In this document: in pieces, positions 2,240 to 60,578 of the stretch | How the letters are laid out: each line of letters starts with the position of its first letter | How positions within the stretch are numbered: position 1 is the first letter of the stretch | Assembly (NCBI GenBank): GCA_963727485.1 | Contig: CAVSGM010000001.1 | Coordinates: 274,006-338,005 of the forward strand | Length of the DNA stretch: 64,000 nucleotides | Direction: 5' to 3' | DNA from: an uncultured delta proteobacterium | GTDB lineage: Bacteria; Myxococcota; Myxococcia; SLRQ01 | The notes under the pieces: model-generated | The model's input: the letters and a program-made list of their open reading frames with translations, nothing else | Databases searched by the model: none | What the model was told of the DNA's origin: nothing | Translations under genes and position numbers: made by a program

Positions 2240-2323
2240 CGCCCGGGTCCGCCCTGGCGCAGAGGCTGCAAACCATAGGATGACCGCACCCGCCGGGTGC
2301 AACAGGTCGCGACAGAGACGTAC

Positions 2324-3791: not shown

Positions 3792-4927
3792 TCTACTGGC
3801 TCCTCTACCCCTTGGCCGGCCGGTTCCCGGTGTTCAACGTCCTGCGCTACCCGAGCTTCCGGATGATCATGGCCGGGCTCACCGCGCTCCTGTTCAGCCT
3901 GCTCCTCGGGCCCTGGTTCATCGAGCGCCTCCGGGTCGCCCAGCACGGCATGGACACCGTGCGCGAGGACACCCCCGAGAACCACCAGAAGAAGCGCGGC
4001 ACCCCGTCCATGGGCGGCCTGCTGATCCTGGCGGCGCTGCTCCTGGGCACCCTGCTCTGGGCCATCCCGACCAGCCCCCTGGTGTGGACGGTGGTCACGG
4101 TGACCGTGGGCTTCGGCGCCGTGGGCTTCGCCGACGACTGGATGAAGTTCCGCAACCGCTCCAAGGGCGTCCCCGGGAAGCTCAAGCTCCTCATCGAGGC
4201 GGCCATCACCGCGGTGGCCATCTACGCCTTCCTCACCGACCACCACCTCATCTTCTCCAGCCACTTCCCCTTCGCCACCGTCGGCTTCCGGCTCGACACC
4301 CACGTGGCCTTCCCCTTCGTGGCCACCCACACCTTCAACCCCAACCTCGGGTGGGCCTACCCCCTCTTCGCCCTCTTCGTGGTCATGGGGACCGGCAACG
4401 CGGTGAACCTCACCGACGGCCTCGACGGGCTCGCCATCGGCCCCACCATCGTCGCCGCCGTGACCTGGCTGGTGCTCGCCTACGCCGCGGGCACGGTCAT
4501 CGCCGGGTTCAACATCGCCGAGTACCTCTACATCCCCCACATCGCCGGGGCCGAGGAGCTCTCCGTCTACGCCGCGGCCATGGCCGGGGCCGGGGTCGGC
4601 TTCCTCTGGTACAACACCTACCCCGCGTCGGTGTTCATGGGCGACGTGGGGTCCCTGGCGCTGGGCGGCGGCCTGGGGATGCTGGCGGTGCTCACCAAGA
4701 ACGAGCTGGTGAGCGCCATCGTCCACGGGGTGTTCCTCCTCGAGGCCCTCTCGGTGATCCTCCAGGTGGCCTCGTTCAAGTCCACCGGGCGCCGGGTGTT
4801 CCGGATGGCGCCGGTGCACCACCACTTCGAGCTCAAGGGGTGGGCCGAGCCGAAGATCATCGTCCGCTTCTGGATCACCTCCATCATCCTCGCCGGGGTG
4901 GCGATCGCGGGGCTCAAGCTGCGATGA
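3788..4927 (+). CDS. mraY: Phospho-N-acetylmuramoyl-pentapeptide transferase MraY
   Basis: 379 aa polytopic membrane protein with classic MraY motifs (NxxNxTDGLDGLA, ...HHHFE...). Position in dcw cluster. Confidence 0.93.
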   Translation: MIYWLLYPLAGRFPVFNVLRYPSFRMIMAGLTALLFSLLLGPWFIERLRVAQHGMDTVREDTPENHQKKRGTPSMGGLLILAALLLGTLLWAIPTSPLVWTVVTVTVGFGAVGFADDWMKFRNRSKGVPGKLKLLIEAAITAVAIYAFLTDHHLIFSSHFPFATVGFRLDTHVAFPFVATHTFNPNLGWAYPLFALFVVMGTGNAVNLTDGLDGLAIGPTIVAAVTWLVLAYAAGTVIAGFNIAEYLYIPHIAGAEELSVYAAAMAGAGVGFLWYNTYPASVFMGDVGSLALGGGLGMLAVLTKNELVSAIVHGVFLLEALSVILQVASFKSTGRRVFRMAPVHHHFELKGWAEPKIIVRFWITSIILAGVAIAGLKLR

Positions 4928-6306: not shown

Positions 6307-7427
6307 ACGAGCGCCGCATCGATCTGGTGCTCCTGTGCACCGTCCTCGCCCTGGCCGCCATCGGGGTGGTGATGGTCTACTCGGCGAGCGCGGTCTTCGC
6401 CGGCAAGACCCTCGGCGACCCGACCTTCTTCCTCAGGCGCCAGCTGGTGGCCCTGGCCATCGGCCTGTTGGGGATGGCGGCGATGGTGCGCCTCGGTCAT
6501 GAGCGCCTCCGCCAGCTGGGACCCATGGCGCTGCTGGTGGCGATGGTGGCCCTCATCGCCATCTTCGTCCCCGGCCTCGGCCACGCCGCCGGCGGCGCCC
6601 GGCGCTGGGTGCACCTGGGCCCGGTGAACTTCCAGCCCTCCGAGCTCGCCAAGCCCGCGCTCATCCTCTACCTCGCCTGGTCGCTGTCCCGGAAGCAGGA
6701 CCGGATGACCGACTTCAAGGCGGGCTTTCTGGGGCCGGTGCTCATCGCCGGGATCCCCATCGGCCTCATCCTCCTCCAGCCCGACTTCGGCACCGCGGTG
6801 TCGCTGGCCCTGGTGGTCTGCGTGATGCTCTTCGTCGCCGGCGCCCGGGTGAGCTACCTGATGGGCGCCGGGCTCCTGGCCCTGCCGGTGGTCTACCACC
6901 TGGTCGCCAGCACCCCCTACCGGATGCGCCGGATCATGGCCTTCCTCGACCCCTGGTCGACCCGCCACGACGCCGGCTACCAGGTCGCCGAGTCGCTGAT
7001 CTCCATCGGCTCCGGGGGGCTGGCCGGCGTCGGCCTCGGCGACGGACGCCAGAAGCTCTTCTTCCTCCCCGAGGCCCACACCGACTTCATCTACTCCATC
7101 ATCGGCGAGGAGCTCGGCCTCATCGGCACCGTGCTCATCATCGTCCTCTTCGCGCTCTTGGTGTGGCGGGGCCTCAAGGCCGCCTACGCCGCCGAGGACG
7201 CCTTCGGGGCCTACCTCGCCCTGGGGCTCACCGCCATCCTCGGTCTCCAGGCGAGCCTCAACATGGCCGTGGCCATGGGGCTGCTGCCCACCAAGGGCCT
7301 CACGCTCCCCTTCATCTCCTACGGGGGCACCAGCCTGGTCCTGTCGCTGGTGGCGGCGGGGATATTGCTCGCGGTCTCCGCCGGGCGCGGCGGGTACCTC
7401 AAGCCCGAGCCGGGGGCCAGGCGATGA
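6303..7427 (+). CDS. ftsW: Peptidoglycan glycosyltransferase FtsW (SEDS family)
   Basis: 374 aa, about 10 TM helices, SEDS-family conserved segments ([19 protein letters not shown]). ATG 6303 overlaps the murD stop. Confidence 0.9.
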
Positions 7428-8575
7428 CCCTGCGCGTCCTCATCACCGGTGGCGGCACCGGCGGCCACGTGTTCCCGGGGATCGCCCTCGCCGAGGAGTT
7501 CTCCACCCGGCACCACGAGAACGAGGTCCTCTTCGTGGGGACCGAGCGGGGCATCGAGCGCGAGGCGGTGCCCCGGGCCGGCTACCCCATCGAGTTCATC
7601 GAGGTGGTGGGCCTCAAGCGCAAGGGCGTCCTGGGCCTGGCGCGTGGCCTCCTGCGGCTGCCGCGGGCCCTGTTCCAGGCCCTGGGCATCGTGCGCCGCT
7701 ACCGGCCGGGGATCGTCATCGCCGTGGGGGGCTACGCCAGTGGCCCGGTGGCGCTGGCGGCCTGGCTGCTGCGGGTGCCGGTGGTGGTCCAGGAGCAGAA
7801 CGCGCTGCCGGGGCTCACCACGCGGGTGGTCTCCCGCTTCGCCCGGCGGATCTTCGTCGCCTTCGAGGCGGCGCGGTCCCACCTCCCGGCGCGCAAGGTG
7901 CTCCTCACCGGCAACCCCATCCGCCAGGCGTTGATGGAGAACTTCCTCCGCCCCACGCCCCCGCGGCCGGCCGACGCCGCGCCGGGGCTCCTGGTCTTCG
8001 GGGGCAGCCAGGGCGCCCGGGCCCTCAACGAGGCCCTGGTGGGCGCGGTGGGCCAGCTGCGCGCGCGCTTCCCCAACCTCAAGGTGGTGCACCAGACCGG
8101 CGAGCGGGAGCACGACACCGTGGTCGCCGCCTACCGGGAGGCCGGGCTCCTGGAGACCGTCGACGTGCGCCCCTTCATCCACGAGATGTCCGAGGCCTAC
8201 GCCGACTGCGACGTGGTGGTCTGCCGCGCCGGGGCCACCACCCTGGCCGAGATCACCGTGTGCAAGAAGGCGTCGATCCTGGTGCCCTTCCCCTTCGCCG
8301 CCGACGACCACCAGACCGTCAACGCGAAGGCGCTGGCCGACGCCGGGGCGGCGGTGCTCCTGCCCCAGGGAGAGCTCACCCCCGAGCGCCTCGCCGGCGA
8401 GGTGGCCGGCCTCCTCGGCGATGCCGGGCGCCGGAAGGCCATGGAGCGCGCCGCCGGCCTCATGGGTCACCCCGAGGCCGCCCGGGAGATCGCCGACGTC
8501 TGCGTGGAGACCTGGGTCGCCGCCGGCGGCCTGGAGCGCGAGCGGCGCCAGCTTCGCAACGGGGAGGGCGGCTAG
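7424..8575 (+). CDS. murG: UDP-N-acetylglucosamine--N-acetylmuramyl-(pentapeptide) pyrophosphoryl-undecaprenol GlcNAc transferase MurG
   Basis: 383 aa. N-terminal [19 protein letters not shown] motif and GT28 C-terminal domain. ATG 7424 overlaps the ftsW stop. Confidence 0.92.
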
Positions 8576-8577
8576 CC

Positions 8578-9978
8578 ATGGTCATGTTCCACGGCAAGGC
8601 GAGCCGCATCCACTTCGTGGGCATCGGCGGCATCGGGATGAGCGGCATCGCCGAGGTGCTCCTGAACCTGGGCTACGCGGTCACCGGCTCCGACCTCAAG
8701 CAGAGCGACACCACCCGCAGGCTCGAAGGCTTCGGCGCCAGCATCGTGAGGGGCCATGACCCGGCCCAGGTCGAAGGCGCCGACGTGGTGGTCATCTCCA
8801 GCGCCGTGCCCCGGACCAACCCCGAGGTGGTCGAGGCGAGGCGCCTGGGGATCCCCGTCATCCCCCGGGCGGAGATGCTCGCCGAGCTGATGCGCCTGAA
8901 GTACGGCGTCGCCGTGGGCGGCTCCCACGGCAAGACCACCACCACCTCCATGGTCGCCCACCTCCTCCAGGCCGGGGGCCTCGATCCCACGGTGGTCGTC
9001 GGCGGCAAGGTCAACACCCTTGGCACCAACGCCCGGGTGGGGCAGGGCGACTACCTGGTCGCCGAGGCCGACGAGAGCGACGGGAGCTTCTTGGTCTACG
9101 CGCCCACCATCGCCGTGGTCACCAACATCGACGCCGAGCACCTGGACCACTACGGCTCCATGGAGGCCCTGCGCGAGGCCTTCCTCCGCTTCGTCAACCG
9201 CCTGCCCTTCTACGGCCTGGCGGTGCTCTGCCTCGACCACCCCGAGGTGCAGCACCTGTTGCCCCGGGTGGAGAAGCGCCACGTCACCTACGGCGCCGCC
9301 TCCCAGGCCGACTGGCAGCTCGGCGAGGTGCGCTACCAGGGGATGCGCGCCGAGTTCGAGGTGGGCCTGCGCGGTGAGGCCCTGGGCACCTACGCCCTCC
9401 CCATGGTCGGCCGGCACAACGTCCTCAACGCCCTGGCGGCGCTGGCCGTCGCCGAGGAGATGGGCGTCCCCCGGGAGGTGGCCCGGGAGGCGCTGGCCAC
9501 CTTCGCCGGGGTGCAGCGGCGGTTCACCGTCCGCGGCGAGGTCGACGGAGTCACGGTGGTCGACGACTACGGCCACCACCCGGCGGAGATCCAGGCGGTG
9601 CTCAAGGGTGCCCGCAACGTCTTCGACCGGCGCATCGTCGCCGTGTTCCAGCCCCATCGCTACACCCGCACCCGGGACTGCCTCGACGGGTTCGCGATGA
9701 GCTTCAACGACGCGGACCTGGTCTGCGTCACCGACATCTACGCCGCCGGCGAGTCGCCCCTCGAAGGGGTGAGCGCCGAGGGGCTGGTCGACGCCATCCG
9801 CCGCCACGGCCACCGGGACGTGACCCACACCGGCGATCTCGAGCGCACCGTCGCCGAGCTCGCCCCGCGGATCCGCGAGGGCGACCTGGTGATCACCTTC
9901 GGCGCCGGGGACGTGTGGAAGGTCGGCACCGCCCTCCTCGAGCACCTGCGCGCGGGCCACGGGGAGGCGGCGTCATGA
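8578..9978 (+). CDS. murC: UDP-N-acetylmuramate--L-alanine ligase MurC
   Basis: 466 aa. [18 protein letters not shown]-terminus, P-loop [12 protein letters not shown], Mur ligase C-domain. Confidence 0.92.
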
Positions 9979-10916
9979 CCCGGGCCGCGACCCTGAGCAC
10001 CCTCGCCTGGCGGGACGACCTGGCGTCGACGGTGAAGGGCACCCTCCTCGCCGACGAGCCCCTGGCGCGCCACACCACGCTCGCCATCGGCGGCCCCGCC
10101 GAGGCCTGGTTCGAGCCGGCGGACACCGCGGATCTCGCCGGTGCCCTGTCGCTGGTGCGCCGGGCCCGGGTGCCCTACTGCGTGGTCGGCGGCGGCTCCA
10201 ACCTCCTGGTCGGCGACCGCGGGGTGCGGGGCCTGGTGGTCCACCTCGGCCGGGACTCCTCCCAGGTGGAGGAGACGGAGACCGACGGCGGCGTCCGCGT
10301 GGTCTACCCCGCGGGGATGCCCACCAGCATGGTGCGCCGCCACGCCCGGGAGCGGGGGCTCATCGGCCCCGAGTTCCTCATCGGCATCCCCGGGACCCTC
10401 GGCGGCGCCATCCAGATGAACGCCGGCACCCGCCTGGGGGAGATGGTCGACGTGGTCGCCGGCGCCGAGGTGGCGCTCCCCGAGGGGCCGCGGTGGCTCT
10501 CCGCCGAGGACTTCGGCTTCGCCTACCGGCAGGCCACCGTGCCCGAGGGCGGCGTCGTCACCCGCATCGCCCTCAACCTGAAGCGCGCCACCACCGAGGC
10601 GGCCGCCGCCGCCCGGGACGCCGCCAAGAACGAGCTGAAGCAGCGCCACGCCACCCAGCCCAAGGGAAAGAGCGCCGGCTCCATCTTCAAGAATCCCCCC
10701 GGCGACCACGCCGGCAGGCTCATCGAAGAGGTGGGCCTCAAGGGCCGTCGCGTCGGGGGCGCGGTGGTCAGCGAGGTCCACGCGAACTTCATCCTCAACG
10801 ACGGCGGCGCCACCGCCCGGGACGTCCTCGCGCTCATCGAGGTCTGCCGGGACACGGTGGCGCTGGCCACCGGGGTGTTCCTCGAGCTCGAGGTCCGCCT
10901 CCTGGGAAGCTTCTGA
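9975..10916 (+). CDS. murB: UDP-N-acetylenolpyruvoylglucosamine reductase MurB
   Basis: 313 aa from ATG 9975, overlapping the murC stop. FAD-binding PCMH domain (GGGSNLLV) and MurB C-terminal domain. Confidence 0.9.
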
Positions 10917-10918
10917 TC

Positions 10919-11857
<939 letters not shown>

Positions 11858-11862
11858 CGATC

Positions 11863-12696
11863 ATGGCGCGCAAGTCCAACAAGCGGCGGACGGATCCCAC
11901 GGTGGCCCGCGACAAGGTGCGCGGGGCGGCGCGGAGCGCGTTCGGCTTCGTGGCCCGGCTCCTCGGGGCGGCGGTGGTGGTCGCCGGCACCTTCGCCGCG
12001 GTCATCGCCACCTACCTGTGGATGACCACCTCCTCGCGTTTCGCGGTGCGCGAGGTGGACATCGCCGGCAACCACCACGCCACCCTCGCCGAGCTGGCGC
12101 CCCTGACCGGCCTGGCCCAGGGCACCAACCTGTTCCTGGTCAACGCCGACGAGGTCGCCGCCCGCCTCGAGTCCCACCCCTGGGTGCGCACCGCGGTGGT
12201 GCGCCGGGTCTTCCCCTCCACGGTGCAGGTCACGGTGGACGAGCACCACGCGGTGGCCCTGGTGGCCCTCGGGGGCCTCTACCTCGCCGACGCCGAGGGG
12301 CAGGTGTTCAAGCGCGCCGTCCCCGGCGACCCCATGGGGCTCCCGGTGATCACCGGCCTGAAGCGGGGCGAGGGCGAGGCCGGACGGGCCGCCCTCGAGG
12401 CCGGGGTGCGCCAGGCGCTCACGGTGGCCCGCGACTGGCGCCACTCGCCCATGGCCAAGGTGGCCCGGCTCTCGGAGATCCACCTCGATCCCCTCGCCGG
12501 CGTGAGCCTCACCGCCGCCGGCGACGCGGGGGACGGCAAGCCGATGGTGGTGCACCTCGGCCACCACGATCTCGTGCGGCGGCTTCTGCGACTGCACCAG
12601 CTCTGGACCACCCTGTCGGCGCGCGGGCAGCGCCCCCAGGAGGTCTTTCTCGACAACCACACGCGACCACAGTGGGTGGTGGCGCGGGTGGACTGA
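11863..12696 (+). CDS. ftsQ: Cell division protein FtsQ
   Basis: 277 aa from ATG 11863. Basic N-terminus, single TM (AAVVVAGTFAAVIATYLW), POTRA-like domain. Position between ddl and ftsA. Confidence 0.85.
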   Translation: MARKSNKRRTDPTVARDKVRGAARSAFGFVARLLGAAVVVAGTFAAVIATYLWMTTSSRFAVREVDIAGNHHATLAELAPLTGLAQGTNLFLVNADEVAARLESHPWVRTAVVRRVFPSTVQVTVDEHHAVALVALGGLYLADAEGQVFKRAVPGDPMGLPVITGLKRGEGEAGRAALEAGVRQALTVARDWRHSPMAKVARLSEIHLDPLAGVSLTAAGDAGDGKPMVVHLGHHDLVRRLLRLHQLWTTLSARGQRPQEVFLDNHTRPQWVVARVD

Positions 12697-50363: not shown

Positions 50364-51283
50364 CCGCGGCGGCGAGGCCGTGGCGAACCGGAGACCAGAG
50401 GCGGCTCGCCAGGGGCAGCGTGGCCCACCGGCCCCACCACCCGGACGTCGGTGGCGTAGTGCCACTTGTAGTCCTCGTCGCCGTAGAGGAACTCGAAGCT
50501 CCGATCGCCGGCGTGGTGGCTCGCCTCGAGGAGGTGGTGGAGGAGCAGGCGGCCCGGGGCGTAGCGGGAGAGCGCCGGGTCGTAGACGGGCATCCAGTAG
50601 TGGAACCGGCCCTGCCAGGTGGCCCCGAGGTGGATCGCCGCCGGCCGGGTGCCCGCCCGGAGGACGGCGACCTGGAGCAGGCCCCGGCGCCACAGGGCGC
50701 GGAAGAGCTCGGCGTTGCGCCGGGGCGCGAGGAAGTCCGGCGCCCCGGTGCGGCGGTACTGGTCGCGCTTCCAGGTGAGGGCCAGCTCCAGGAGCTCCGG
50801 GGCCGGGTGGTGGAGGTAGAGGGCGACCGGGCCCACCTCCTCCTCGAGGCGCCGGAGGCGACGGCGGGCTTCGGAGAAGGTGTTGCGCTGCCGCGCCTTC
50901 ACCGAGGCCTCGAAGTCGGCCCACCGGGGGAAGCGCGCCCAGTCCACGAAGGGCGCGGCGCCGAAGCCGGGCTCGGGGAGGCGGCCGAGGAACACCTCCG
51001 CCGGCACCACCTCCACCACCGCGTTGCCCAGCAGGCTCAAGGGGCGCTCGGCGCCGGTGGCCGGGCCCAGGGGCGCGTGGAGATCCACGAAGGCCACGTC
51101 GGCCAGCAGCCGCCCGCCGGCCTCCACCGCCCGGTAGCGGCGGCCGTCCACCGCGAGCTCCACCAGGCGCGCCTCGGCCCCGGGGGCCCAGGCCTCGGCG
51201 AGGGCCTCGAGGAACGGCGGGGCGTCGAAGAAGGTCTCCCGGCTCGCGTCGGCGGCGAGGACTTCAGGCACGGAGGGCATCAC
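50138..51283 (-). CDS. FemAB/CelD-like GNAT-fold acyltransferase (EPS-locus type); 3' end uncertain
   Basis: 381 aa as written. BioF2/CelD-like core ending ...FEFLYGDEDYKWHYATD. After this, a -1 shifted frame gives a more protein-like tail (...ATLPLASRLWSPVRHGLAAAVRASPPAWSLAQRTRRYLVEHGVL, stop near 50290), while the in-frame tail is Gly/Pro/Arg junk. Confidence 0.6.
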   Translation of the reverse strand: MMPSVPEVLAADASRETFFDAPPFLEALAEAWAPGAEARLVELAVDGRRYRAVEAGGRLLADVAFVDLHAPLGPATGAERPLSLLGNAVVEVVPAEVFLGRLPEPGFGAAPFVDWARFPRWADFEASVKARQRNTFSEARRRLRRLEEEVGPVALYLHHPAPELLELALTWKRDQYRRTGAPDFLAPRRNAELFRALWRRGLLQVAVLRAGTRPAAIHLGATWQGRFHYWMPVYDPALSRYAPGRLLLHHLLEASHHAGDRSFEFLYGDEDYKWHYATDVRVVGPVGHAAPGEPPLVSGSPRPRRRGQGQPARLVTGPAHPPLSRRARGPLGAPASWPTPPPTPRGPSHASSPSPETSAAPDSPDRASGRNARGAVLHSRR

Positions 51284-52865
51284 GCTGTCTCCCTTCCTGG
51301 GTGGGGACCACCGGCGCCCGGCGCTTGGGCCGCGGGCGCACCTCGGCGGCCGGGGCCCGGGCCACCGCGCCCGGGGCCAGGGGGCGGTCGAGGACCACCC
51401 CGGGGCCGACCCGGGCGCCAGCGCCGATGGTGATGGGGCCGAGGAGGGTGGCGCCGGGGCCGACCTCCACGTCTCGCTCCAGGGTCGGCGCGCCCCGGAC
51501 GCGGGTGGCGGCGTCCACCGCGTCGCCCAGGGTCACGTGCTGGGCGAGGCGGACCCCCGAGGCGACCCGGGCGGCGTGGCTGATGGTCAGCCCCTGGCCG
51601 TGGTCGAGGCGCAGCCCCGGGGCCAGGTCCGCGGCCCAGTGGATCTCGGCGCCGAAGAGGTGGCGCAGGCTCCGGGAGAGGACCTGGGGCAGGAGCGGCA
51701 CCCCGGCCCGGTGGGCCGCCTGCATGGTCCGGATGAGCAGGAGCATCTGCCCCTCGGGGCGGGCGAGGAAGCGGCGCTGCGGGTGGTCCTCGCGGGCGGC
51801 GCGGGCGTCGGCGGTGACGGCGGTGGCGAGGAAGCCCAGGGCGTCGGCGACCCGGTAGCGCCGGGAGCCCGCATTGGCGGCGGCGGCGTGGCGCATCATC
51901 TCCGCGGCGGCGGCGACCAGCGACCCCGAGGCCACCCGCACCCCCCGGAAGTACTCGATGCCGTAGGCCAGCGTGGTGCCGGCGATGGCCGGGCCCTCGA
52001 GCCCCACCCGGTCCACCCCCACGGCCACGGCCATCACCCCCCGGGCGAGGTGCCGGGTGCGCCTGGGCGCCAGGACCACCGAGAGGAGCACCGGCCGGGA
52101 GACCGGGCTCACCCGGGGCAGGAACGCCCAGGGATCGGCCTCGATCACGGTCGGGTGCTTCCGGGCGATGATGTGGTCGTAGCGCCCGTAGCGGAAGGCC
52201 CGGCCGAGCCAGACGTCGAGGGCCTCGTGGTCGGAGGCGTGGATGGTGTCGGCGTCGTCCACCAGGGTGAACTCGAGGCCCCGGTCGGCGAGGCGGATGC
52301 CCAGCTCCCGGTCCTCGGAGCGCAGCAGGGTCCGGTCGAAGCCCCCGGCGGCGAGCAGGTCCACCCGGCGCACCGAGACGTTCCCGGTGGAGAGGCGAAG
52401 CGGCGAGATCGGCGCCCCCCGGAGGGCCTCGCGCTCGAAGGTGGCGAGCTGCCGGGCGTGGAAGCGTTCGAAGAGGGGCATCGTGTGGATCCCCGGCGCC
52501 GGACGGATCCGCCCCAGGACCACCCGCGGCGGGGCGGTCTCGTGGGCCAGGAGGTGGCCCTCGAGGAAGCCCGGGCGCACCTGCATGTCGTCGTCGACGA
52601 AGACCAGGATCGTCCCCTCGGCCAGCCGCGCGCCCCGGTCCCGGGCGGCCGCGGCCCCGGCGTTGGCCTGGCGCTCGAGGCGCAGGTCGTAGCGCACCGC
52701 GAGGCCGGCGAGGCCCTCGGCCGCCGGGGGATCCGAGCCGTCGTCGACCACGATCACCTCGTAGGCGTCCGGCGGGAGGGTCTGGGTGTCGAGCTGCGTC
52801 AGCAGCCGGCGAAGGGACTCCGGGCGCCCGAAGGTGGGCACCACCACCGAGACGCGGATCATCAT
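51264..52865 (-). CDS. GT2-family glycosyltransferase fused in-frame to a serine O-acetyltransferase-like (left-handed beta-helix, hexapeptide) domain
   Basis: 533 aa from ATG 52865. N-terminal MMIRVSVVVPTFGRPESL...VIVVDDGSD (GT2 DXD region). C-terminal about 170 aa with CysE-like helical region (RAGVPLLPQVLSRSLRHLFGAEIH) and hexapeptide repeats. No stop separates the two parts in the given sequence. Confidence 0.6.
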   Translation of the reverse strand: MMIRVSVVVPTFGRPESLRRLLTQLDTQTLPPDAYEVIVVDDGSDPPAAEGLAGLAVRYDLRLERQANAGAAAARDRGARLAEGTILVFVDDDMQVRPGFLEGHLLAHETAPPRVVLGRIRPAPGIHTMPLFERFHARQLATFEREALRGAPISPLRLSTGNVSVRRVDLLAAGGFDRTLLRSEDRELGIRLADRGLEFTLVDDADTIHASDHEALDVWLGRAFRYGRYDHIIARKHPTVIEADPWAFLPRVSPVSRPVLLSVVLAPRRTRHLARGVMAVAVGVDRVGLEGPAIAGTTLAYGIEYFRGVRVASGSLVAAAAEMMRHAAAANAGSRRYRVADALGFLATAVTADARAAREDHPQRRFLARPEGQMLLLIRTMQAAHRAGVPLLPQVLSRSLRHLFGAEIHWAADLAPGLRLDHGQGLTISHAARVASGVRLAQHVTLGDAVDAATRVRGAPTLERDVEVGPGATLLGPITIGAGARVGPGVVLDRPLAPGAVARAPAAEVRPRPKRRAPVVPTQEGRQRDALRA

Positions 52866-53362
52866 GGGGCCCTCGAGGCGAAGCGCCGGGGTACGGCGAC
52901 GGTCCCGAGGAAGCGGTGACGTCCCACCAGCTCCACCACCTTCCGGGCCTCGGGGACCGGGGTCTCGCCGAGGGTCACCACCAGGAGCGCGGCGTCGGCG
53001 GCGGTGGCCAGCGGCATGGCCGCCGGGCGGTAGAGGGGCGAGTCCACGGCCACCAGCCGGCTCCCTCCGCCGGGGCCCGGGTCCAGGGTGCCGAGGAGCT
53101 CCCGGGCGGCGCCGAGGGTGAGGCGGGTGGCGTCGACCACCGCCAGCCCATGGCCCTCGAACACCCGCCCCACCTCGTGGAGCGAGTTGGCGACATAGAG
53201 GCTGGTGCCCGCCTCCTCCACCGGCACCACCGCCAGGGTGCGGAAGGCCCGCTTGCGCAGGTCGAACCACACCTGCTGCCAGACCGAGAGGGGCTCGAGG
53301 GTGGGCGTGGGGCGCCGGCCCCGGCGCTTGATGTGGAAGTAGGTGGTGTCGATGTCGGACAT
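52862..53362 (-). CDS. BY-kinase (Wzc/MinD-fold) catalytic-domain homolog with a degenerate Walker A motif (no P-loop lysine) and no Tyr-rich tail
   Basis: 166 aa. Aligns with bacterial tyrosine autokinase domains (GHGLAVVDAT ~ GKRVLLIDAD; LVAVDSPLYRPAAMPLATAADAALLVVTLGETP ~ IIDTPPVLAVTDAALLA..VLLVVRAGKT). Where GEGKS/T is expected the sequence reads EEAGTS. Confidence 0.5.
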   Translation of the reverse strand: MSDIDTTYFHIKRRGRRPTPTLEPLSVWQQVWFDLRKRAFRTLAVVPVEEAGTSLYVANSLHEVGRVFEGHGLAVVDATRLTLGAARELLGTLDPGPGGGSRLVAVDSPLYRPAAMPLATAADAALLVVTLGETPVPEARKVVELVGRHRFLGTVAVPRRFASRAP

Positions 53363-53388
53363 CTTCGACTCCTGGTTCGCGGAAGGGT

Positions 53389-53931
53389 TCAGGCCGCGCT
53401 GGGCGCGGGACGGGTGTTGCGGCGGGACACGATGCGGGCGGGAACGCCCACGGCGACGGCGTCCTCGGGGACGTCGTCGAGGACCACGGCGCCGGCGCCG
53501 ATCACCGCCCGGTCGCCGACGCGCACCGGCCCCAGGATCCTGGCGCCGATGCCCACGATCACGTCGTCCCCCACCACCGGGTAGCCGTCCTCCCGGGCGG
53601 TGCCGAGGACGTTGCCCCCCATCAGGCGCACCCGGTCGCCGACCTTCGCGTCGCCGCCGACCACGGTGCCCACGGTGTGGACGAAGTAGACCCCGTGCCC
53701 CAGGCGCACCTCCCGGTCCACCTCCACCCCGTAGATCGCGGTGCCGGCGAGGCGGAGGAGGTGGGGCAGGAGCGGCACCCGGCGGCGGTGGAGCGCCACC
53801 CGGGCGCGGAAGAGGAGGTCCACCGCGAAGCTGTCGGTGGTGGCGGCGGCCAGCAGCCGCCGCACCCCGCTCCCCGGGAGGTCGGCGGCCCGGGCCAGGG
53901 CCGAGAGGTCGGCGCGGAGGGTGTCGAGCAT
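53389..53931 (-). CDS. Serine O-acetyltransferase-like hexapeptide-repeat acyltransferase
   Basis: 180 aa from ATG 53931. CysE-like N-terminal helices (HRRRVPLLPHLLRLAGTAIYGVEV) followed by hexapeptide repeats (VVGDDVIVGIGARILGPVRVGDRAVIGAGAVV). Confidence 0.75.
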   Translation of the reverse strand: MLDTLRADLSALARAADLPGSGVRRLLAAATTDSFAVDLLFRARVALHRRRVPLLPHLLRLAGTAIYGVEVDREVRLGHGVYFVHTVGTVVGGDAKVGDRVRLMGGNVLGTAREDGYPVVGDDVIVGIGARILGPVRVGDRAVIGAGAVVLDDVPEDAVAVGVPARIVSRRNTRPAPSAA

Positions 53932-55160
53932 CAGCGTTCTCCCTTGCGCGGGGTGCGGACCCAGGGGGCGGCGGCCCGGGCGTAGCGCCCCCGGCGGAGC
54001 ACCAGCTTCCAGGCGAGGTAGGCGGGGGCGGTGGCGAGCGCCATCAGGCCCCGAACGCCCAGGCCGCTGATGGCGAGGCCCCGGGCGAGGTAGACGCCGA
54101 TGGCCAGCGCGGCCCCGGCGAAGGCCACCACCGCCACCGTGGGCGTGCCCCCGGCGAGGTGGAGGCCCAGGGAGGCCATCAGCCCCAGCGCCACCAGGCC
54201 CACCAGGTCGGCCAGCGGGGGGACCAGGAGATCGAGGCCGAGGTCGAGGGCGACGAGGCTGCGCCGGCGCCAGGCGGCTCGGAGCAGCGGCCCGAGGTGG
54301 CGGCGCACCAGCGCCCGGCGGCCGCCCTCCCACCTGCGGCGCTGGCCGGCGGCGGCAGCCGGGCCCGCGGGCATCTCGCCCAGGACCCGCGCCTCGGGGA
54401 CGTAGGTCACCCGGATCCCCGCCAGCCCCAGGGCGATGCCCTGCTCGAGGTCCTCGACGATGGACCCGGCGTCGTGGGGCACGGCCCGGAGGGCGCCGGT
54501 GGTGAAGCACATGCCGTTGCCCCGCAGCCCCGCCGAGAGCCCGAGGCGGGCCCGGCCCAGGGAGCGCACCCCGTGGAAGAGGGCGAAGGCGAGGGTGAGC
54601 AGCCGGGTGCGCCAGCTCTCCAGGGGGTTGGCGACGCCGTAGTCGGCCTGGAGGGCCGTGGCCCCGGCGGCGATCCGGGCGTCGAAGGCCCGGAGGAGGT
54701 TGGGGGTGACCACGGTGTCGGCGTCGACCACCACCAGGGCGTCGGCCAGGCCGTCGTCGAGGAGCCGGGCGAAGGCAAAGGCCAGGGCCTGCCCCTTGCC
54801 CGGCCGGGCGGGGTCCACCCGGGTGAGGACCATGGCTCCGGCGCGCCGGGCCACCGCCGCGGTGTCGTCGCTGCAGTTGTCGGCGATGACCACCAGCCGG
54901 CGCCGGTCCCTGGGGTAGTCGAGGGTCTCGAGGCTCGCCAGGGTGGGGCCGAGGTTTGGCGCCTCGTCGTGGGCGGGGACCACCAGGTCGAAGCGGGTGA
55001 GACCGCGACCGGCCGGGGGCGTCCGTCCCGGGCGGGCGAGGAGGGCCAGGAGGGCGAGGTAGCCGCCGAGGACCAGGGCGAGGATCCCGAAGACCGCGAG
55101 GCCCCCCTCGCCAAGCCTCACCAGGAACCCCGCCGAGAGGGTGAGGGCCAGCTCGCTCAT
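53931..55160 (-). CDS. GT2-family glycosyltransferase with C-terminal transmembrane region
   Basis: 409 aa from ATG 55160. N-terminal TM, GT2 core (FDLVVPAHDEAPNL...VVIADNCSDDT...VVVDADTVV), QRRRW-like motif (AGQRRRWEGG), C-terminal TM helices. Confidence 0.75.
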   Translation of the reverse strand: MSELALTLSAGFLVRLGEGGLAVFGILALVLGGYLALLALLARPGRTPPAGRGLTRFDLVVPAHDEAPNLGPTLASLETLDYPRDRRRLVVIADNCSDDTAAVARRAGAMVLTRVDPARPGKGQALAFAFARLLDDGLADALVVVDADTVVTPNLLRAFDARIAAGATALQADYGVANPLESWRTRLLTLAFALFHGVRSLGRARLGLSAGLRGNGMCFTTGALRAVPHDAGSIVEDLEQGIALGLAGIRVTYVPEARVLGEMPAGPAAAAGQRRRWEGGRRALVRRHLGPLLRAAWRRRSLVALDLGLDLLVPPLADLVGLVALGLMASLGLHLAGGTPTVAVVAFAGAALAIGVYLARGLAISGLGVRGLMALATAPAYLAWKLVLRRGRYARAAAPWVRTPRKGER

Positions 55161-56677
55161 GCCGTACCTCCCTGGAGGGCCATGGCCCCCGTCCGGATCC
55201 GCGCGGTGGCCCGGGCCCCGAGGGCCCCCGACGCCACCGCCAGGTTCGCCGCCGCCCCGCCGAGGGCGCTCATCACCAGCAGCGGCATCCAGTCCTGGAG
55301 CCCGATGTCGCCGAAGGCCTGGACCTCGAAGGCGATCACCGCCACCACCGCCGCCATCGCCACCACCCGCCGCCCGGGGGTGCGGGCGAAGCGGTGGGCC
55401 CTGACCCCGATGAACAGGAGGATTGGCAGCACCATCCAGATCGCCGAGAACCCCACCAGCCCCCCGGCGGTGAGCAGCCAGAGGACGCTGTTGTGGGGGA
55501 GGAAGCGGTACTGCTTGAAGAACTGCGAGAGGTCGTAGGCGGGGACGAGCTCCTCGTAGGGGTGGCCGAACCCCCGGCCGAAGAGGGGGTGGCCGTGGAG
55601 GGTGTAGACGAGGTTGAGGTCCTCGACCTCCCGCGACTTGCTCGACGAGTCCTGCTGCTCGCCCACCGAGTGGAGGGCCTCCACCGGGGCGAAGATCTTG
55701 GAGTGGCTCCCCAGCCCCATCACCACGTAGGCGAGGAGCAGGGGGCTCGCGGCCACCCCCACCTTGAGGAAGATCCCACGCAGGGGCCGGCGCAGGAGGA
55801 GGACGAAGGCGAGGAGGGCGTAGATCAGGGCCACGTAGGCCAGGCGCCGGTCGTTGAGGATCATCACCACGCCGATGAACGGCGCCACGGTGACGAAGGC
55901 GAGCGTGCGCAGGAGGTCCCGGTGCTCCATCAGCCCGTGGAGGAGGAGCACCAGCACCAGCACGTAGAGGACCGAGTCGGAGTGGGTGGTGATGTAGTGG
56001 GCCTGGAAGCCCACCGGGCGGCAGTAGCGCAGCCAGTACCAGAGCCCGAGGAGCCCCCGGATCACCGTCACCGCCACCAGGCCCACCACCAGGACCCGGC
56101 GGACGCCGTCGGTGGAGAAGGCGTGGAGCGCGAGGACGACGAGGACCGGGAGCCAGAGGAGCTGGCGCATCTGCCACAGGGACTGCTGCACGTCGCCGCC
56201 CCGGGCGAGCCCGAAGACCTCCAGGCCCAGCACCGCCAGGAAGCACACCGCCAGGGCCAGGATCAGGGGCCGGAGCGCCGGGTCCAGGGGGGGCACCTCG
56301 CCCTTGAGCCGCCGGATCACGAGCGCCACCAGCATCAGCAACAGGCCCACCTCGAGGAGCGAGAGGTGGACGGCGCCGAAGCCGAGGGAGGTGTTGAGGT
56401 TGTCGTAGAGGAGCTTGCCCGGGGCGTAGAGGGGCGAGCGCCACCGGCCCTGCATCGGGTTCGACGAGGGGTCCGGGAGGAGCACCGACCCCAGGACCAC
56501 GGCGGTCATCAGCCAGGAGAAGGGCGCCCGGGCGAGGAGCCACACCGCGAGCACCACCAGCGCCGGCGCCAGGGCGAACACCGGCCGGGTGGCCGCGCCG
56601 AGGAAGGCGCTGGCCACCATCACCACCGGGAGCACCAGCCACAGGGTGCGGCGGCGCAGCTTTCGGGTCGGGGTCAC
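55157..56677 (-). CDS. O-antigen ligase/polymerase-like (Wzy_C domain) polytopic membrane protein
   Basis: About 506 aa. At least 10 TM helices. Periplasmic loop motif FLPHNSVLWLLTAGGLVG matches the Wzy_C signature H-N-x-x-L-x(4)-x-G-x-x-G. Probable GTG start overlapping the upstream gene's stop (GTGA). Confidence 0.7.
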   Translation of the reverse strand: MTPTRKLRRRTLWLVLPVVMVASAFLGAATRPVFALAPALVVLAVWLLARAPFSWLMTAVVLGSVLLPDPSSNPMQGRWRSPLYAPGKLLYDNLNTSLGFGAVHLSLLEVGLLLMLVALVIRRLKGEVPPLDPALRPLILALAVCFLAVLGLEVFGLARGGDVQQSLWQMRQLLWLPVLVVLALHAFSTDGVRRVLVVGLVAVTVIRGLLGLWYWLRYCRPVGFQAHYITTHSDSVLYVLVLVLLLHGLMEHRDLLRTLAFVTVAPFIGVVMILNDRRLAYVALIYALLAFVLLLRRPLRGIFLKVGVAASPLLLAYVVMGLGSHSKIFAPVEALHSVGEQQDSSSKSREVEDLNLVYTLHGHPLFGRGFGHPYEELVPAYDLSQFFKQYRFLPHNSVLWLLTAGGLVGFSAIWMVLPILLFIGVRAHRFARTPGRRVVAMAAVVAVIAFEVQAFGDIGLQDWMPLLVMSALGGAAANLAVASGALGARATARIRTGAMALQGGTA

Positions 56678-58134
56678 TCGTCCACCCCTCCGAGGTAGGG
56701 GAGGCGCAGCTGCCGCTCGACCTGCCAGGGCAGGAGCAGCCGCTGGCCCAGGACCTCGAGGCCGAGGGCGAAGCCCATGGACACCAGCATCCCCGCCAGG
56801 ACCCCCATCACCAGGACCAGCGGGACGTTGGGCTTGTCCGCCTTCTCCGGGAGCTTGGGCCGGCCGATGACGCTGTAGCGGTACTTGAACGCCGCGTTCG
56901 CCACGTCGAGCTCGATGGTGGCCGAGCTGATCCGGCCGAGCAGATCGTCGTAGCTGTCCAGGGCGCGCAGCAGCTGGTTTCTGGCGCTGGCGATGTCCGG
57001 GTCCCGGTTCTCCGAGGGATCCCCCTCGGCGACCTCGTTGCGCGCCAGGTCCACCGCCCGCTGGGCGAGGGTGGTGTCGGTGCGCAGGGTCCCCTCGGCG
57101 CGCTGGGCCGCGTCGTAGCGGGCCTGGAGCTGCGCCGCCTGGGCCCGGAGGTGCTGGAGCTCCGGCGAGGGGGCCTCGAGGGCCAGGATGCTCTGCTTGA
57201 GCGCCACGATGTCCGGGTGGCCCGGGGTGAGCACGGTGCTCTTCTCCCGGAGGGTGGCCCGGAGCTGGGCGAGCCGTCCCTCGCGGGTGGCCTCCACCGC
57301 GGCGATGGCCTGCCGCTTGGCGGAGAGATCGCTGGCGAGCTGGGTGATCTGGAGGTTCTGGCTCCGGCTCCGGCGCCGCGTCGTCACCGCCGGCTTCTCG
57401 GCCTTCACCTCCTGCTTCTGCCGGCTCTGCCGGAGCTTGCGCAGGGTGACGAGGCCCTGGTCCACGCGGCTCTTCTCCTGGGCGGCGTGGGAGTCGAGGA
57501 CCTGGAGGGCGTCGGTGATGCCGCTGACCTCCCGGCTCCGGCGCTGCTCCAGGAACCGGTCGGAGAGGAGCCGGGCGAGGAGCGCGGTGGTCTCCGGGTC
57601 GAACCAGCTCACGTAGATCGGAGATCACGTTGTTCCCCGCCGACACGCCAAGGTGCTCGCGGAGCAGCTTCACCAGCGCGTCCTTGGTCTCCGCCGGGGT
57701 CAGGGGCCCGAGGATCAGGTCGTGGAGCTGGTCCTTGAGGCGGAGGATCGGGGTGCGCGAGGCCTTGAACCGGCGCTCGAGCTGGGCCTCGTCCACCACC
57801 CACTCCAGGTTCTGCTCGGAGAGGAGCATCGGCGCCGCGGCCCGGGTGGGGTCGTCGCCGTACATGGGGATGGTGCGGTGGGGGTTGGCGAGGGCCGGCA
57901 TCTGGTAGTCGGTCATCGCCAGGATCCGGGCCTCGGCGCTGTAGGTCCGGGGCACGGCGAAGAGGAAGCCCACGGTGAGGGCGACGACCCCCAGCGCCAC
58001 GCCGAACATCAGTCGGCGGCGGCGCGCGAGGGCGACGCGCACGTAGGCGAGGACGTCTCCCACCTCCCGCAGGCCCAGGGCGGGCTCGGGGGGCGGCGGG
58101 GGGGCGACGGTCTGGAGCTCGGCAGGATGGGGCA
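56674..58134 (-). CDS. Polysaccharide chain-length determinant protein (GumC/Wzz/Wzc N-terminal-domain family); frame broken by an apparent +1 insertion near 57614
   Basis: N-terminal part (MPHPAELQ...RRRRLMFGVALGVVALTVGFLFAV, TM1, ...LVKLLREHLGVSAGNNVISDL) in one frame. The C-terminal coiled-coil periplasmic domain and TM2 (VSWFDPETTALLARLL...LVLVMGVLAGMLVSMGFALG...) are in the +1 frame. Removing one base from gatctAcgtg joins them as ...ISDLVSWFDPE... Confidence 0.75.
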
Positions 58135-58140
58135 TGGCGT

Positions 58141-58542
58141 TCACCGCGCCTCCCGGCGCGGCGCCTCCACGGGCTCGCCGGCCAGCGCCTGCACGGCGGC
58201 GCGGAACTGGCCGGGGGTGAATGGCTTGAGCAGGTAACCGTTGGCCCCGAGCGCGATGGCCAGCGCCCGGTCCTGGGGCATCCACCGGCCGGTGGTCATC
58301 AGGATCGGGGCCTGCGCCCCGTGGGGGTGCCGGCGGACGGCCTCGCACACGTCGAAGCCGGAGATGGTGGGCAGGCCGATGTCCACGCACACCAGGGCCA
58401 GGGGCCCCTCGTCGAGGAGGGTGAGGGCGGTCCGGCCGTCGTCGGTGGCCTCCACCTCGAAGCCCATCCGGGAGAGGAGCACCGTCAACAGCTGGCGGGC
58501 GCTGGCATCGTCTTCGACCACGAGAGCTCTGCGAACAGCCAT
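58141..58542 (-). CDS. Response regulator, receiver domain only (CheY-like)
   Basis: 133 aa. Conserved receiver residues (VVEDD..., phospho-acceptor region ALVCVDIGLP, T and K in LMTTGR...YLLKPF). No output domain. Confidence 0.8.
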   Translation of the reverse strand: MAVRRALVVEDDASARQLLTVLLSRMGFEVEATDDGRTALTLLDEGPLALVCVDIGLPTISGFDVCEAVRRHPHGAQAPILMTTGRWMPQDRALAIALGANGYLLKPFTPGQFRAAVQALAGEPVEAPRREAR

Positions 58543-58554
58543 GGGAGTCTCACT

Positions 58555-58722
58555 TCAGAGGCGCGGGTAGAGGTAGCGGAGGGCCAGGAGGTAGAGGGCG
58601 GCGACGCCGGCCATGGTCACCACCACCTGGAGCAGGGCGCGGCGGGGGCGCTCGGTCCGGGCGAGGAGCACCGGCACCGCGATGGTCGCCAGGAGGATCG
58701 AGGTGAGGACCAGGGACTTCAT
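58555..58722 (-). CDS. Small (55 aa) two-TM membrane protein, translationally coupled to the upstream OM-protein gene
   Basis: Hand-translated: MKSLVLTSILLATIAVPVLLARTERPRRALLQVVVTMAGVAALYLLALRYLYPRL. Its ATG overlaps the TGA of the 58719..59982 gene (ATGA). G/C-biased third positions. Below the ORF-track size cutoff. Confidence 0.4.
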   Translation of the reverse strand: MKSLVLTSILLATIAVPVLLARTERPRRALLQVVVTMAGVAALYLLALRYLYPRL

Positions 58723-59982
58723 GGCGTCCGGCCTCCGCGGGTGGGATCGTCCTTGGCCGAGGTCTCGCCCGGGCGCACCTCACGGCCGGTGCGCGGATCG
58801 AGGGCGCGCTTCTCGGGGGTGGTGCCGAAGAAGGCGCGCAGCCCCACGAACACGTCCCAGCCGCTGCCGTCGAGGCCCGGCCCCCGGTACCGCTGGGGGA
58901 GCTGCTGGTAGTAGAAGCGCAGCCCGGTCTGGAGCTGGACCCCGGTGGTGAGGGTGTAGCTGCCCTGGGCCCCGAGGGACTGGAGGGCGCCGTCGATGAG
59001 GGGCCCCCGGGCGAGGATCCACACCTGGTCCATGAGGAGGCTGGCGCTGCCCCGACGGGTCAGCTGCAGGGTGGCGGCGGCGTGGATGCCGGCCCGGGAC
59101 TCGAGGGAGCCGTCGAGGCGGTTGAGGGCCGGGCCGGTCCACAGCCGCCCCTCGAGGTCGAGGCTGGAGCCGGGCCAGCGGAACCGGTGGCTCGCCGCCA
59201 GCGAGAGGGCCGGGTGGATGAGGAAGGCGTCGGGGCCCAGCGGCAGCCGGGCGTCCCGGGAGACCACCACCCCCGCCGAGGGCGTGAGCCGGGTGTCCGA
59301 GGCCAGGCGCCGCGCCCAGTCGAGGCTGACCCCGGCGAGATCGTAGGCGGGGCCCGTGGAGAACTCGGTGTGCTGCCAGGTGAGGTGGCCGCTGACCAGG
59401 TCGCGACCGGTGACCGCCTGGCGGAGCGTGAGAATCCGCCCTGGGGCCGTAGCCCAAAGGCAGCACCGCCCGGGCGAGGGTGTCCATGCCCCCGGAGGCG
59501 TCGTAGCCGGCGCTCGCCTCCCAGGTCTGGGTGGGGCTCGCCCGGTAGCGCACGGTGGCCAGCGCGGTGGCGGCGCCGACGGTGATCCGGCTCACCTGGG
59601 GCACCAGGTCGGGGAGGGCGCCGTCGGGGGTGAGGGAGAAGAGCCAGGTCTCCTGCCCATAGCGGGCCCACCCGGCGGCGAAGACCTCGAAGCGGGGGCC
59701 GAGGCGGGCGGTGTAGGAGAGCCGACCGCTCTGGAGCAGGGTGGGCGCCGGCTGGAGGGCGCCGGAGAGCCAGGCGGCCCGGAGGCGGTAGTCGAGGACG
59801 AGCTGCTGGGTCTCCCCGGTGAGGGCCAGCGCCATCTCGGGGCTGATGGCCAGCTCCATCCCCGCGCCCCCGGGCTGGGCGCTGAAGGCGTCCGGCGCCC
59901 GGGCGTGGGTGTCCACCGAGACCCCGGCCTGGACCTGGGGCACCACCGCGGCGGCGAAGAGGAGGCTCAAGACGAAGGACAT
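58719..59982 (-). CDS. Secreted outer-membrane beta-barrel-like protein of EPS locus (unknown function); frame broken by an apparent +1 insertion near 59415-59425
   Basis: ATG 59982 with GGAG upstream. Signal peptide MSFVLSLLFAAAVVPQVQA. The N-terminal 180 aa are in one frame (...DTLARAVLPLGYGP). The remainder (...ILTLRQAVTGRDLVSGHLTWQHTEF...SYTLTTGVQLQTGLRFYYQQ...VFVGLRAFF...) is in the +1 frame. Alternating beta-strand-like pattern. Confidence 0.65.
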
Positions 59983-59984
59983 GG

Positions 59985-60578
59985 CTACTCCACCAGGACC
60001 GTGTCCCGGGGCCGGAGGACGTAGCTGGCGGCCCGGCTCTGGCCCGACACCAGGTCGTCGAAGGTGAAGCGGATGGGCCGCTCCTGGGGGTCGCCCGGGA
60101 CCACGAAGATCCGCGTGGGGTCGGCGAAGTTGTTCAGGCCCCCGGCCCGGGAGAGCGCCTGGAGGATCCCGCTGCCCCGCTGGAGGTCGAACATCCCCGG
60201 GGTGACCACCTGGCCCAGCACCCCGATGCGCAGGGGCTCGGCGGCGACCACGCTCACCACCACCTTGGGCTTGAGCACCACCGCGGAGAGCTTGCCGGTG
60301 ATGGCGCTGGCGGCGGCCTCCGGGGTCATCCCCGCCACGTGGATGTCGCCGACCAGCGGCAGGGTGATCACCCCGTCGCTGCGGACCTTCATCTCGCCGG
60401 AGAGCGGGGTCTGCTTCCACACCTCGACCTTGAGCTGGTCGCCGGGCGCGATGCGGAAGGCGTGACCGTCGGCCAGGGCCGGGTCGACGCTCTTGTACCA
60501 GACGTAGCTGTCGACGTGCTCGCAGCCGGCGGCGGCGAGGACGAGGAGCAGCGGGAGGAGGAGACGCGGGCGGATCAT
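59985..60578 (-). CDS. Polysaccharide export protein, Wza/GumB/EpsA-like periplasmic lipoprotein
   Basis: 197 aa from ATG 60578 (SD GGGAGG). Lipobox LAAAGC. Poly_export and SLBB motifs (PGDQLKVEVW, VTLPLVGDIHVAGMT). Confidence 0.8.
   Translation of the reverse strand: MIRPRLLLPLLLVLAAAGCEHVDSYVWYKSVDPALADGHAFRIAPGDQLKVEVWKQTPLSGEMKVRSDGVITLPLVGDIHVAGMTPEAAASAITGKLSAVVLKPKVVVSVVAAEPLRIGVLGQVVTPGMFDLQRGSGILQALSRAGGLNNFADPTRIFVVPGDPQERPIRFTFDDLVSGQSRAASYVLRPRDTVLVE

Follow-up and report, generated by a model that had tools for sequence, protein, structure and literature searches.

A stand-alone BY pseudokinase of the EcpK type, probably a non-catalytic partner of a kinase-less co-polymerase, in an exopolysaccharide locus of an uncultured Myxococcota-like lineage

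What is the role of a protein that has the fold of a bacterial tyrosine (BY) kinase, lacks its nucleotide-binding loop and is encoded close to a polysaccharide co-polymerase (PCP) that itself has no kinase domain? The question is raised by a 64,000-nucleotide stretch of DNA from an uncultured delta proteobacterium (positions 274,006–338,005 of contig CAVSGM010000001.1, assembly GCA_963727485.1; hereafter the window), in which a minus-strand gene at 52862–53362 encodes a protein of 166 residues within an exopolysaccharide (EPS) locus. Our analysis indicates that this protein is, with high probability, a stand-alone BY pseudokinase of the type of EcpK (MXAN_7447), a stand-alone protein of the Myxococcus xanthus eps clusters (Blocher et al., J Bacteriol 2025, PMC12004946), and that it would serve as a non-catalytic scaffold docked on the tail of the PCP, supporting the PCP oligomer without phosphorylation. 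The features of the gene itself are as follows.

52862–53362, minus strand: BY pseudokinase gene (EcpK-like), 166 residues, open reading frame (ORF) with an ATG start.
53369–53373, minus strand: Shine–Dalgarno-like AGGAG, 6 nt 5' of the ATG, read from the sequence.
53201–53218, minus strand: degenerate Walker A position, codons 49–54 (EEAGTS), in the loop that joins strand 1 to helix 2, placed by the hhalign register against Wzc and a BY-kinase profile.
52862–52865, minus strand: ATGA stop/start overlap with the downstream family 2 glycosyltransferase (GT2)–acyltransferase gene, seen in the sequence, with the same 4 nt overlap in the homologous loci L001, L005 and L006.

Ordinary searches fail to show the kinship of the protein to BY kinases, which is revealed only by profile–profile and fold methods. 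A Pfam search returned no match, searches of NCBIfam and (with phmmer) of the PDB sequences returned nothing relevant, and neither the protein nor the 138 family members described below have a relevant match in Pfam or NCBIfam, no Pfam family being matched consistently. The AlphaFold2 model computed from these 138 sequences has a predicted local distance difference test score (pLDDT) of 89.2 and a predicted template-modelling score of 0.81; an alignment of just four sequences gave a pLDDT of 57, which was too poor for use. Residues 1–22 are predicted to be disordered (pLDDT below 60), while residues 23–157 form a Rossmann-like core of five strands (42–47, 73–78, 101–106, 124–130 and 151–157) and five helices (23–36, 53–69, 83–90, 115–121 and 136–146). 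The top 28 Foldseek matches in the PDB are all BY-kinase domains, with a probability of 1.00 and query-normalised TM-scores of 0.58–0.66, and belong to Wzc (3la6, 7nib, 7nhr, 9r64), CapAB chimeras (4jmp, 4jlv, 2ved), VpsO (6u1q) and Etk (3cio). Matches outside the BY kinases reach TM-scores of 0.28–0.45, and another P-loop-less fold was rejected on this ground.

The sequence-level counterpart of this result depended on the profile used. The family profile gave weak matches to VpsO (E = 0.088) and MinD (E = 0.45), both on the Walker B stretch, and an hhalign comparison with Escherichia coli Wzc alone was not significant (E = 0.082), with the expected register. A profile of 13 BY kinases was therefore built from E. 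coli Wzc and 12 annotated proteins from plasmid records of Proteobacteria, Firmicutes, Cyanobacteria, Bacteroidota and Planctomycetota. The family aligns to this profile with E = 4.2e-4 over 126 columns (family positions 29–156 against Wzc residues ~515–695), compared with E = 0.11 for the reversed control and 0.15–0.95 for 30 column-shuffled controls, and strand 1 with Walker A, strand 2 with Walker A' and strand 3 with Walker B are all in register. About 50 residues of Wzc between Walker A' and Walker B (strands 2 and 3) are unmatched. We read the protein as a trimmed BY-kinase domain, in which the five-stranded core is kept and an insert of ~50 residues is missing. A preliminary description, made from the letters alone, had aligned the protein along its length with the BY-kinase catalytic domain, had asked for a predicted structure and its comparison with Wzc and Cap proteins, and had named membership of a different P-loop-less family as an outcome that would overturn it. 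The alignment is borne out by both methods, which assign the protein the SIMIBI/MinD-like fold of the BY kinases, with Wzc and CapAB among the leading structural matches; the family is P-loop-less, but derived from BY kinases.

The hhalign register allows the catalytic motifs to be compared position by position.

Strand 1 and Walker A loop: LAVVPV followed by VEEAGTSL in the protein, GVSPSIGKT in Wzc; Ser54 is aligned to Lys540.
Walker A': VVDAT in the protein, LIDCD in BY kinases; the second Asp is lost.
Walker B: VAVDSP in the protein, LIDTPP in BY kinases; the Asp is kept.

The G-x4-G-K-[ST] signature of active BY kinases is absent from the Walker A loop (VEEAGTSL), where, as the preliminary description had read, EEAGTS takes the place of GxGK[ST] at residues 49–54, and there is no Lys or Arg within residues 48–56. 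Across the family, Ala, Thr, Ser or Val occupies the column that corresponds to the Walker A Lys, with no Lys among the residues listed for the 138 sequences. The Walker A' pattern hhhhDxDxR is likewise broken (VVDATR): Asp77 is kept and the second Asp is Thr79, the first position being Asp in 103 of the 138 members and the second Thr, Glu or Arg. Walker B (hhhhD[TS]PP) survives as a remnant, VAVDSPL, with an Asp that is kept in 61/138 members (44%). The C-terminal tyrosine cluster is missing, again in agreement with the earlier reading; the protein ends ...VAVPRRFASRAP, without Tyr, and the last 25 residues are Tyr-free in 132 of the 138 members. An alternative start or frameshift exposing a Walker A upstream had been set beforehand as a ground for rejecting these readings; none was found in any frame of the window, and the [AG]xxxxGK[ST] of a kinase occurs in none of the six frames of the 64 kb. 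With the Walker A Lys, the second Walker A' Asp and the tyrosine cluster lost, the protein is predicted to be incapable of autophosphorylation and probably does not bind ATP.

Could it nevertheless be catalytically active, as an NTPase or kinase that holds its nucleotide in a non-canonical site? Asp77, the first Asp of Walker A', and the Walker-B-like Asp107-Ser-Pro could contribute to such a site. We consider this hardly credible, since the loop equivalent to the P-loop contains no basic residue, a chance GK or GR is seen there in just four of the 138 members, fewer than half of the members keep the Walker B Asp, and no substrate tyrosine tail is present. Catalytic positions that vary to this extent argue that catalysis is not under selection.

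The same pattern extends over a large family. A word-indexed protein search found three close homologues, and an exhaustive HMMER search seeded with these four sequences collected 758 cluster representatives (clusters at 50% identity) at E ≤ 1e-3, 415 of them at E ≤ 1e-10. Nearly all are 150–220 residues long and match residues ~28–158, and no Walker A or P-loop was present in the best 150 of the 758. Recurrent hallmarks are WQxLWFxLxRxxWxSLAxVP, VxxxDA, RhVAhdSPLxxPAxIPxARAADAAxLxVxLG and GRxRFxGxV. Judged from these sequences, the family is large, old, unannotated and uniformly P-loop-less, and its size and uniformity imply that the protein in the window is not a recently broken kinase. Members include one from a Gemmatimonadaceae metagenome-assembled genome (MAG); the closest named relative, at 38% identity, is in a Deltaproteobacteria MAG (L009) found by a profile search of genome contigs. 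The first of two such searches gave no family member and the second gave this one MAG, neither of them reaching Myxococcus, and a tblastn search against plasmids had no match. Four of the longer members (P0041, P0048, P0085 and P0119) have in common an N-terminal extension of ~180 residues fused to the pseudokinase, with the motif LWxRLxLxDxAMVLxLExIVRSVR...LPRLAxxxLI...NPWLRLALxEAGL; the extensions of the long members have no Pfam match.

Long spurious reading frames are common in DNA of 74% GC, and the neighbouring phosphoglycosyl transferase (PGT), EpsX-like, PCP and GNAT genes carry single-base frameshifts, so it might be asked whether the gene is spurious, or a relic without function in a polysaccharide locus that is being lost. 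The evidence makes this quite improbable. The ORF is intact, unlike the frameshifted EPS genes nearby. Compared with L001, a metagenomic contig of 90.5% identity, it has 28 synonymous and 12 non-synonymous codon differences, distributed 7/5/33 over the three codon positions, and its GC content at third codon positions is 0.96; it is therefore a real gene under purifying selection, and a spurious ORF was rejected on the synonymous/non-synonymous pattern. The 758-cluster family, the confidently predicted fold and the conservation of the Shine–Dalgarno-like sequence and of the coupled stop and start argue in the same direction, and the frameshifts of the neighbours may equally be assembly errors. 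The 26 nt upstream of the gene are intergenic, and the start MSDIDTTY is common to the protein and its homologues. The N-terminal peptide MSDIDTTYFH[IV]K (codons 1–12; 53327–53362, minus strand) is near-invariant in the four closest homologues, P0004 having MEPIDTSYLYVK; it is predicted to be disordered, contains a conserved Tyr, is missing from more distant family members and may be a clade-specific docking motif.

The gene lies in a compact minus-strand cluster in the order PGT, a gene in the position of Wzx, outer-membrane polysaccharide export (OPX) protein, EpsX-like protein, response regulator, PCP, Wzy_C, GT2, Hexapep, pseudokinase, GT2–acyltransferase and GNAT-type Acetyltransf_6, beyond which follow a polysaccharide deacetylase gene on the plus strand and then a glycoside hydrolase family 44 (GH44) gene. 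The PGT is a Bac_transf phosphoglycosyl transferase, and the gene in the Wzx position takes its probable identity from L005 and L007. With its EpsY-, EpsX-, EpsW-, EpsV-, EpsC- and EpsB-like genes, the locus has the gene content of M. xanthus eps. The neighbouring features are:

51264–52865, minus strand: GT2 glycosyltransferase–hexapeptide acyltransferase fusion, 533 residues (Pfam Glycos_transf_2, 8.5e-21; Hexapep, 3.2e-08).
53389–53931, minus strand: hexapeptide-repeat acetyltransferase (EpsC-like), directly upstream of the pseudokinase gene (Pfam Hexapep; 180-residue orthologue in L001).
53931–55160, minus strand: GT2-family glycosyltransferase (Pfam Glyco_tranf_2_3, 1.5e-24).
55157–56677, minus strand: Wzy-type polymerase with a Wzy_C/O-antigen ligase domain (Pfam Wzy_C, 4.5e-12).
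56674–58134, minus strand: kinase-less class 2 PCP (PCP-2; EpsV-like), the presumed partner, split by a 1 bp insertion at 57619 (Pfam Wzz on the N-terminal part; intact 486-residue orthologue in L001).
56677–56748, minus strand: C-terminal tail of the PCP on the cytoplasmic side, GQRLLLPWQVERQLRLPYLGGVDE, to which the pseudokinase presumably docks (tail motif common to six loci).
58141–58542, minus strand: single-domain response regulator (EpsW-like; Pfam Response_reg, 8.5e-24).
58719–59950, minus strand: EpsX-like outer-membrane barrel gene, split by a 1 bp insertion near 59434 (L001 orthologue matches Pfam PF28089, EpsX).
59985–60578, minus strand: short OPX protein (EpsY-like; Poly_export and SLBB), 197 residues (Pfam Poly_export, 7.3e-22).

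Two statements of the preliminary description concern this context, and both stand. It had taken the gene to be translationally coupled to the GT2–acetyltransferase fusion, and the stop TGA (52864–52862) indeed overlaps the ATG (52865–52863) of that gene; it had also described the chain-length determinant at 56674–58134 as lacking a kinase domain, and the PCP ends ~24 residues past its second transmembrane (TM) helix and matches Wzz alone in Pfam. Relative to L001, 1 bp insertions shift the frame in four genes of the window, namely those for the PCP (57619, outside any homopolymer), the EpsX-like protein (~59434), the Acetyltransf_6 protein (50420 and 50199) and the PGT (~62465, where the frame changes after ...NEQDGPVFK); they reflect either mistakes in the assembly or a genuine decay of the EPS locus. 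L001 (846–1013), L003 (1817–1987) and L007 (3586–3738) contain a conserved small ORF of 50–56 residues without a Pfam match, which follows the EpsX-like gene and precedes that for the response regulator or the PCP; the corresponding interval of the window is 58546–58716. Positions 1–12000 of the window hold cell-wall and division genes, with Ddl-like and MurB-like motifs met during the P-loop scan, which are unrelated to the pseudokinase.

Homologous loci preserve the linkage of the gene to a kinase-less PCP and a Wzy-type polymerase. In L001, L003, L005 and L007 a PCP of ~490–500 residues without a kinase domain is followed by Wzy_C, in some by a GT2 and a Hexapep gene, and then by the pseudokinase homologue. 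The order of the window is reproduced in L001 between EpsX and Acetyltransf_6, both included; L005 and L007 reproduce it from Wzx to the pseudokinase homologue, including the OPX gene (with the PGT also in L005), and L003 retains a core of EpsX, small ORF, PCP, Wzy and homologue. The cytoplasmic tails of the PCPs in six loci are ~24–30 residues long and have the conserved motif R[IL]L..WQ[VL]ER..G[LV]P[VI]LG, which resembles the Wzc linker RGIESPQVLEEHGISVYASIP between the second TM helix and the kinase core. Another arrangement is seen in P0017 (L008, 13–1287; the gene runs to the contig start), where the end of a PCP, comprising the periplasmic motif and the second TM helix, is followed by two tandem pseudokinase domains, which are therefore placed where Wzc carries its kinase domain.

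The gene downstream of the family member varies: L002 and L007 have GH44 there, L012 has a second GH44 and L013 the exosortase EpsH. This variation bears on whether the protein might scaffold or regulate the coupled GT2–acyltransferase rather than the PCP, for example by tethering the fusion to the assembly machine. The ATGA overlap with the GT2–Hexapep gene, found in the window and in L001, L005 and L006, would fit such a role, and the conserved, disordered N-terminal peptide of the clade could be a second docking motif. We nevertheless regard it as unlikely to be the principal function, since the downstream gene is a different one in L002, L007, L012 and L013, Wzy_C lies nearby in most of those loci, the PCP–Wzy pair stands upstream in L001, L003, L005 and L007, and the partner described for EcpK in the literature is a PCP, EpsV. 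The two roles are mutually compatible. It is a speculative and rather improbable possibility that the EcpK type is one branch of a much larger module, in which the clade of our protein, marked by MSDIDTTYFH[IV]K and an obligatory coupling to the GT2–acetyltransferase, bridges the PCP to a modifying enzyme; if true, polymerisation of the chain would be linked to its O-acetylation or to the addition of side chains, beyond the scaffolding of a PCP oligomer.

More distant family members occur in other polysaccharide clusters. Those of L011 and L013 adjoin exosortase (EpsH) genes, which indicates that the module is not confined to myxobacterial eps-type clusters. The L011 member lies in an exosortase/PEP-CTERM polysaccharide locus (7882–12459), and L013 (4533–12184) has the order AAA_22 ATPase, unannotated 575-residue protein, Wzy_C, GT2, family member, EpsH, EpsI and a tetratricopeptide-repeat protein.

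That the PCP should be the partner of the protein follows the precedent of EcpK. In its AlphaFold model, EcpK is disordered at the N-terminus and comprises five helices and a sheet of five strands; it lacks helices 1–2, strand 1, helices 6–7 and strands 4–5 of Wzc, and matches Wzc, Etk, VpsO and CapAB in Foldseek searches (PMC12004946). EcpK has neither Walker motifs nor a tyrosine tail. It is important for EPS and binds EpsV, a PCP-2 without a kinase domain; in the published model the 25-residue C-terminal tail of EpsV occupies a groove of EcpK and mimics helix 1 and strand 1 of Wzc, and a third, phosphorylation-independent PCP-2 subfamily that includes HfsB/HfsA was defined on this basis (PMC12004946). 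Our protein agrees with EcpK in being small and stand-alone, in the core of five strands and five helices behind a disordered N-terminus, in the absence of the Wzc insert, in its Foldseek matches and in the loss of Walker A, Walker A' and the tyrosine tail. It keeps the DSP remnant of Walker B, whereas EcpK is described as having none of the motifs (PMC12004946). The genetic context agrees as well: a kinase-less PCP-2 with a short C-terminal tail in a Wzx/Wzy cluster is found in the window and in L001, L003, L005 and L007, and the EcpK locus and that of the window both have a short OPX protein, an EpsX barrel, an EpsW-like regulator, a PCP tail of ~25 residues, a serine-acetyltransferase-like gene and a glycoside hydrolase. 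The N-termini differ (MSDIDTTY... in our protein, MAADSS... in EcpK), as does the organisation, the window holding the whole pathway in one compact cluster in which the gene is coupled to the GT2–acyltransferase fusion, whereas M. xanthus has two eps clusters, with ecpK in the second.

Kinship at the sequence level was tested through the primer table of the EcpK study, the supplement of which gives primers and no sequences (PMC12004946). Four primers internal to ecpK were scored against the family. Translated, two of them read QRLWF (19.5 bits at family position 29) and FLGSV (16.2 bits at position 151), for which 3000 random primers gave a maximum of 16.3 bits and a 99th percentile of 12.0; the best matches of the primers for quantitative reverse-transcription PCR are RRSTWK (position 36) and VIDSL (position 105). 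The four are colinear with the family, the forward primers on the sense strand and the reverse primers on the antisense strand, and the motifs Q.LWF, R...W.[ST], DS[PL] and FLG[ST]V are in this way common to the two proteins. This agreement of the primer-derived peptides with the family motifs, in both order and strand, suggests strongly, though indirectly, that EcpK is a member of this family.

Other known systems frame the same comparison. HfsB and HfsA of the Caulobacter crescentus holdfast, likened here by description, also pair a stand-alone BY-like protein devoid of catalytic residues and tyrosine tail with a kinase-less PCP-2, whose C-terminal tail is modelled as binding HfsB; unlike our protein, HfsB has a C-terminal helix predicted to contact the base of the PCP TM helices, and the polysaccharide and the locus are different. 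CapB of Staphylococcus aureus, with its membrane partner CapA, and other PCP-2b systems have a cytoplasmic domain of the same fold (4jmp, 2ved, 4jlv) that is a separate polypeptide and depends on the C-terminal tail of the PCP in the membrane. CapB is, in contrast, an active kinase, with a Walker A GK[ST], DxD, DTPP and a tyrosine cluster that are absent or degenerate in our protein. The PCP-2a proteins Wzc, Etk and VpsO are its best structural matches (3la6, 7nib, 3cio, 6u1q), but these domains are active, are fused to the PCP, have ~50 additional residues separating Walker A' from Walker B, and end in a Tyr-rich tail.

By analogy with EcpK/EpsV and CapA/CapB, we infer that the protein binds the PCP tail, scaffolds the PCP oligomer and is needed for polysaccharide synthesis. 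The pseudokinase would sit at the cytoplasmic face of the inner membrane, bound to the ~24-residue C-terminal tail of the kinase-less PCP-2 encoded upstream beyond three intervening genes, and this tail would supply the helix 1/strand 1 element that is covalently attached in Wzc. It would thereby scaffold an oligomeric, probably octameric, state of the PCP, on which Wzy polymerisation and export through the OPX/EpsX translocon would depend, with no phosphorylation cycle. The preliminary description had suggested a non-catalytic partner or pseudokinase, and the fold, the family-wide loss of the motifs and the kinase-less PCP in the locus support it, the role as a partner by analogy.

Several points weigh against this interpretation. 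The hhalign probability is just 34% despite the E-value of 4e-4, and the retained Asp107-Ser-Pro and Asp77 leave room for a residual nucleotide contact. The gene of the proposed partner PCP is frameshifted in the assembly, and the contact of our protein with the PCP tail is proposed by analogy. Homology to EcpK is strongly but indirectly suggested by four primer-derived peptides and synteny. Finally, EcpK has a Lys/Arg-rich C-terminal helix, ending ...AASQKKKA, that is thought to be used at the membrane and is found in 'several' orthologues only (PMC12004946); our protein has no such positively charged helix, its last strand being followed by nine residues (PRRFASRAP). In the family the tail after the last strand has a median length of six residues, and it is long and Lys/Arg-rich in eight of the 138 members.

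The idea of a non-catalytic partner of the co-polymerase is already published for EcpK/EpsV and HfsB/HfsA (PMC12004946). Since concept, partner and proposed mechanism appeared in 2025, the protein of the window is a new, uncharacterised addition that opens no new question; through it, the recently defined phosphorylation-independent PCP-2 subfamily is extended to an uncultured, high-GC, Myxococcota-like lineage. The pseudokinase family around it comprises hundreds of clusters, far more than the published examples, has no model in the domain databases and includes unexplored architectures, such as the tandem domains fused to a PCP and the N-terminal extension of ~180 residues. The size of the family, its linkage to kinase-less co-polymerases in compact eps-type clusters and its occurrence in exosortase/PEP-CTERM loci support the view, already in print, of a widespread mechanism, and they provide the material for a family model.

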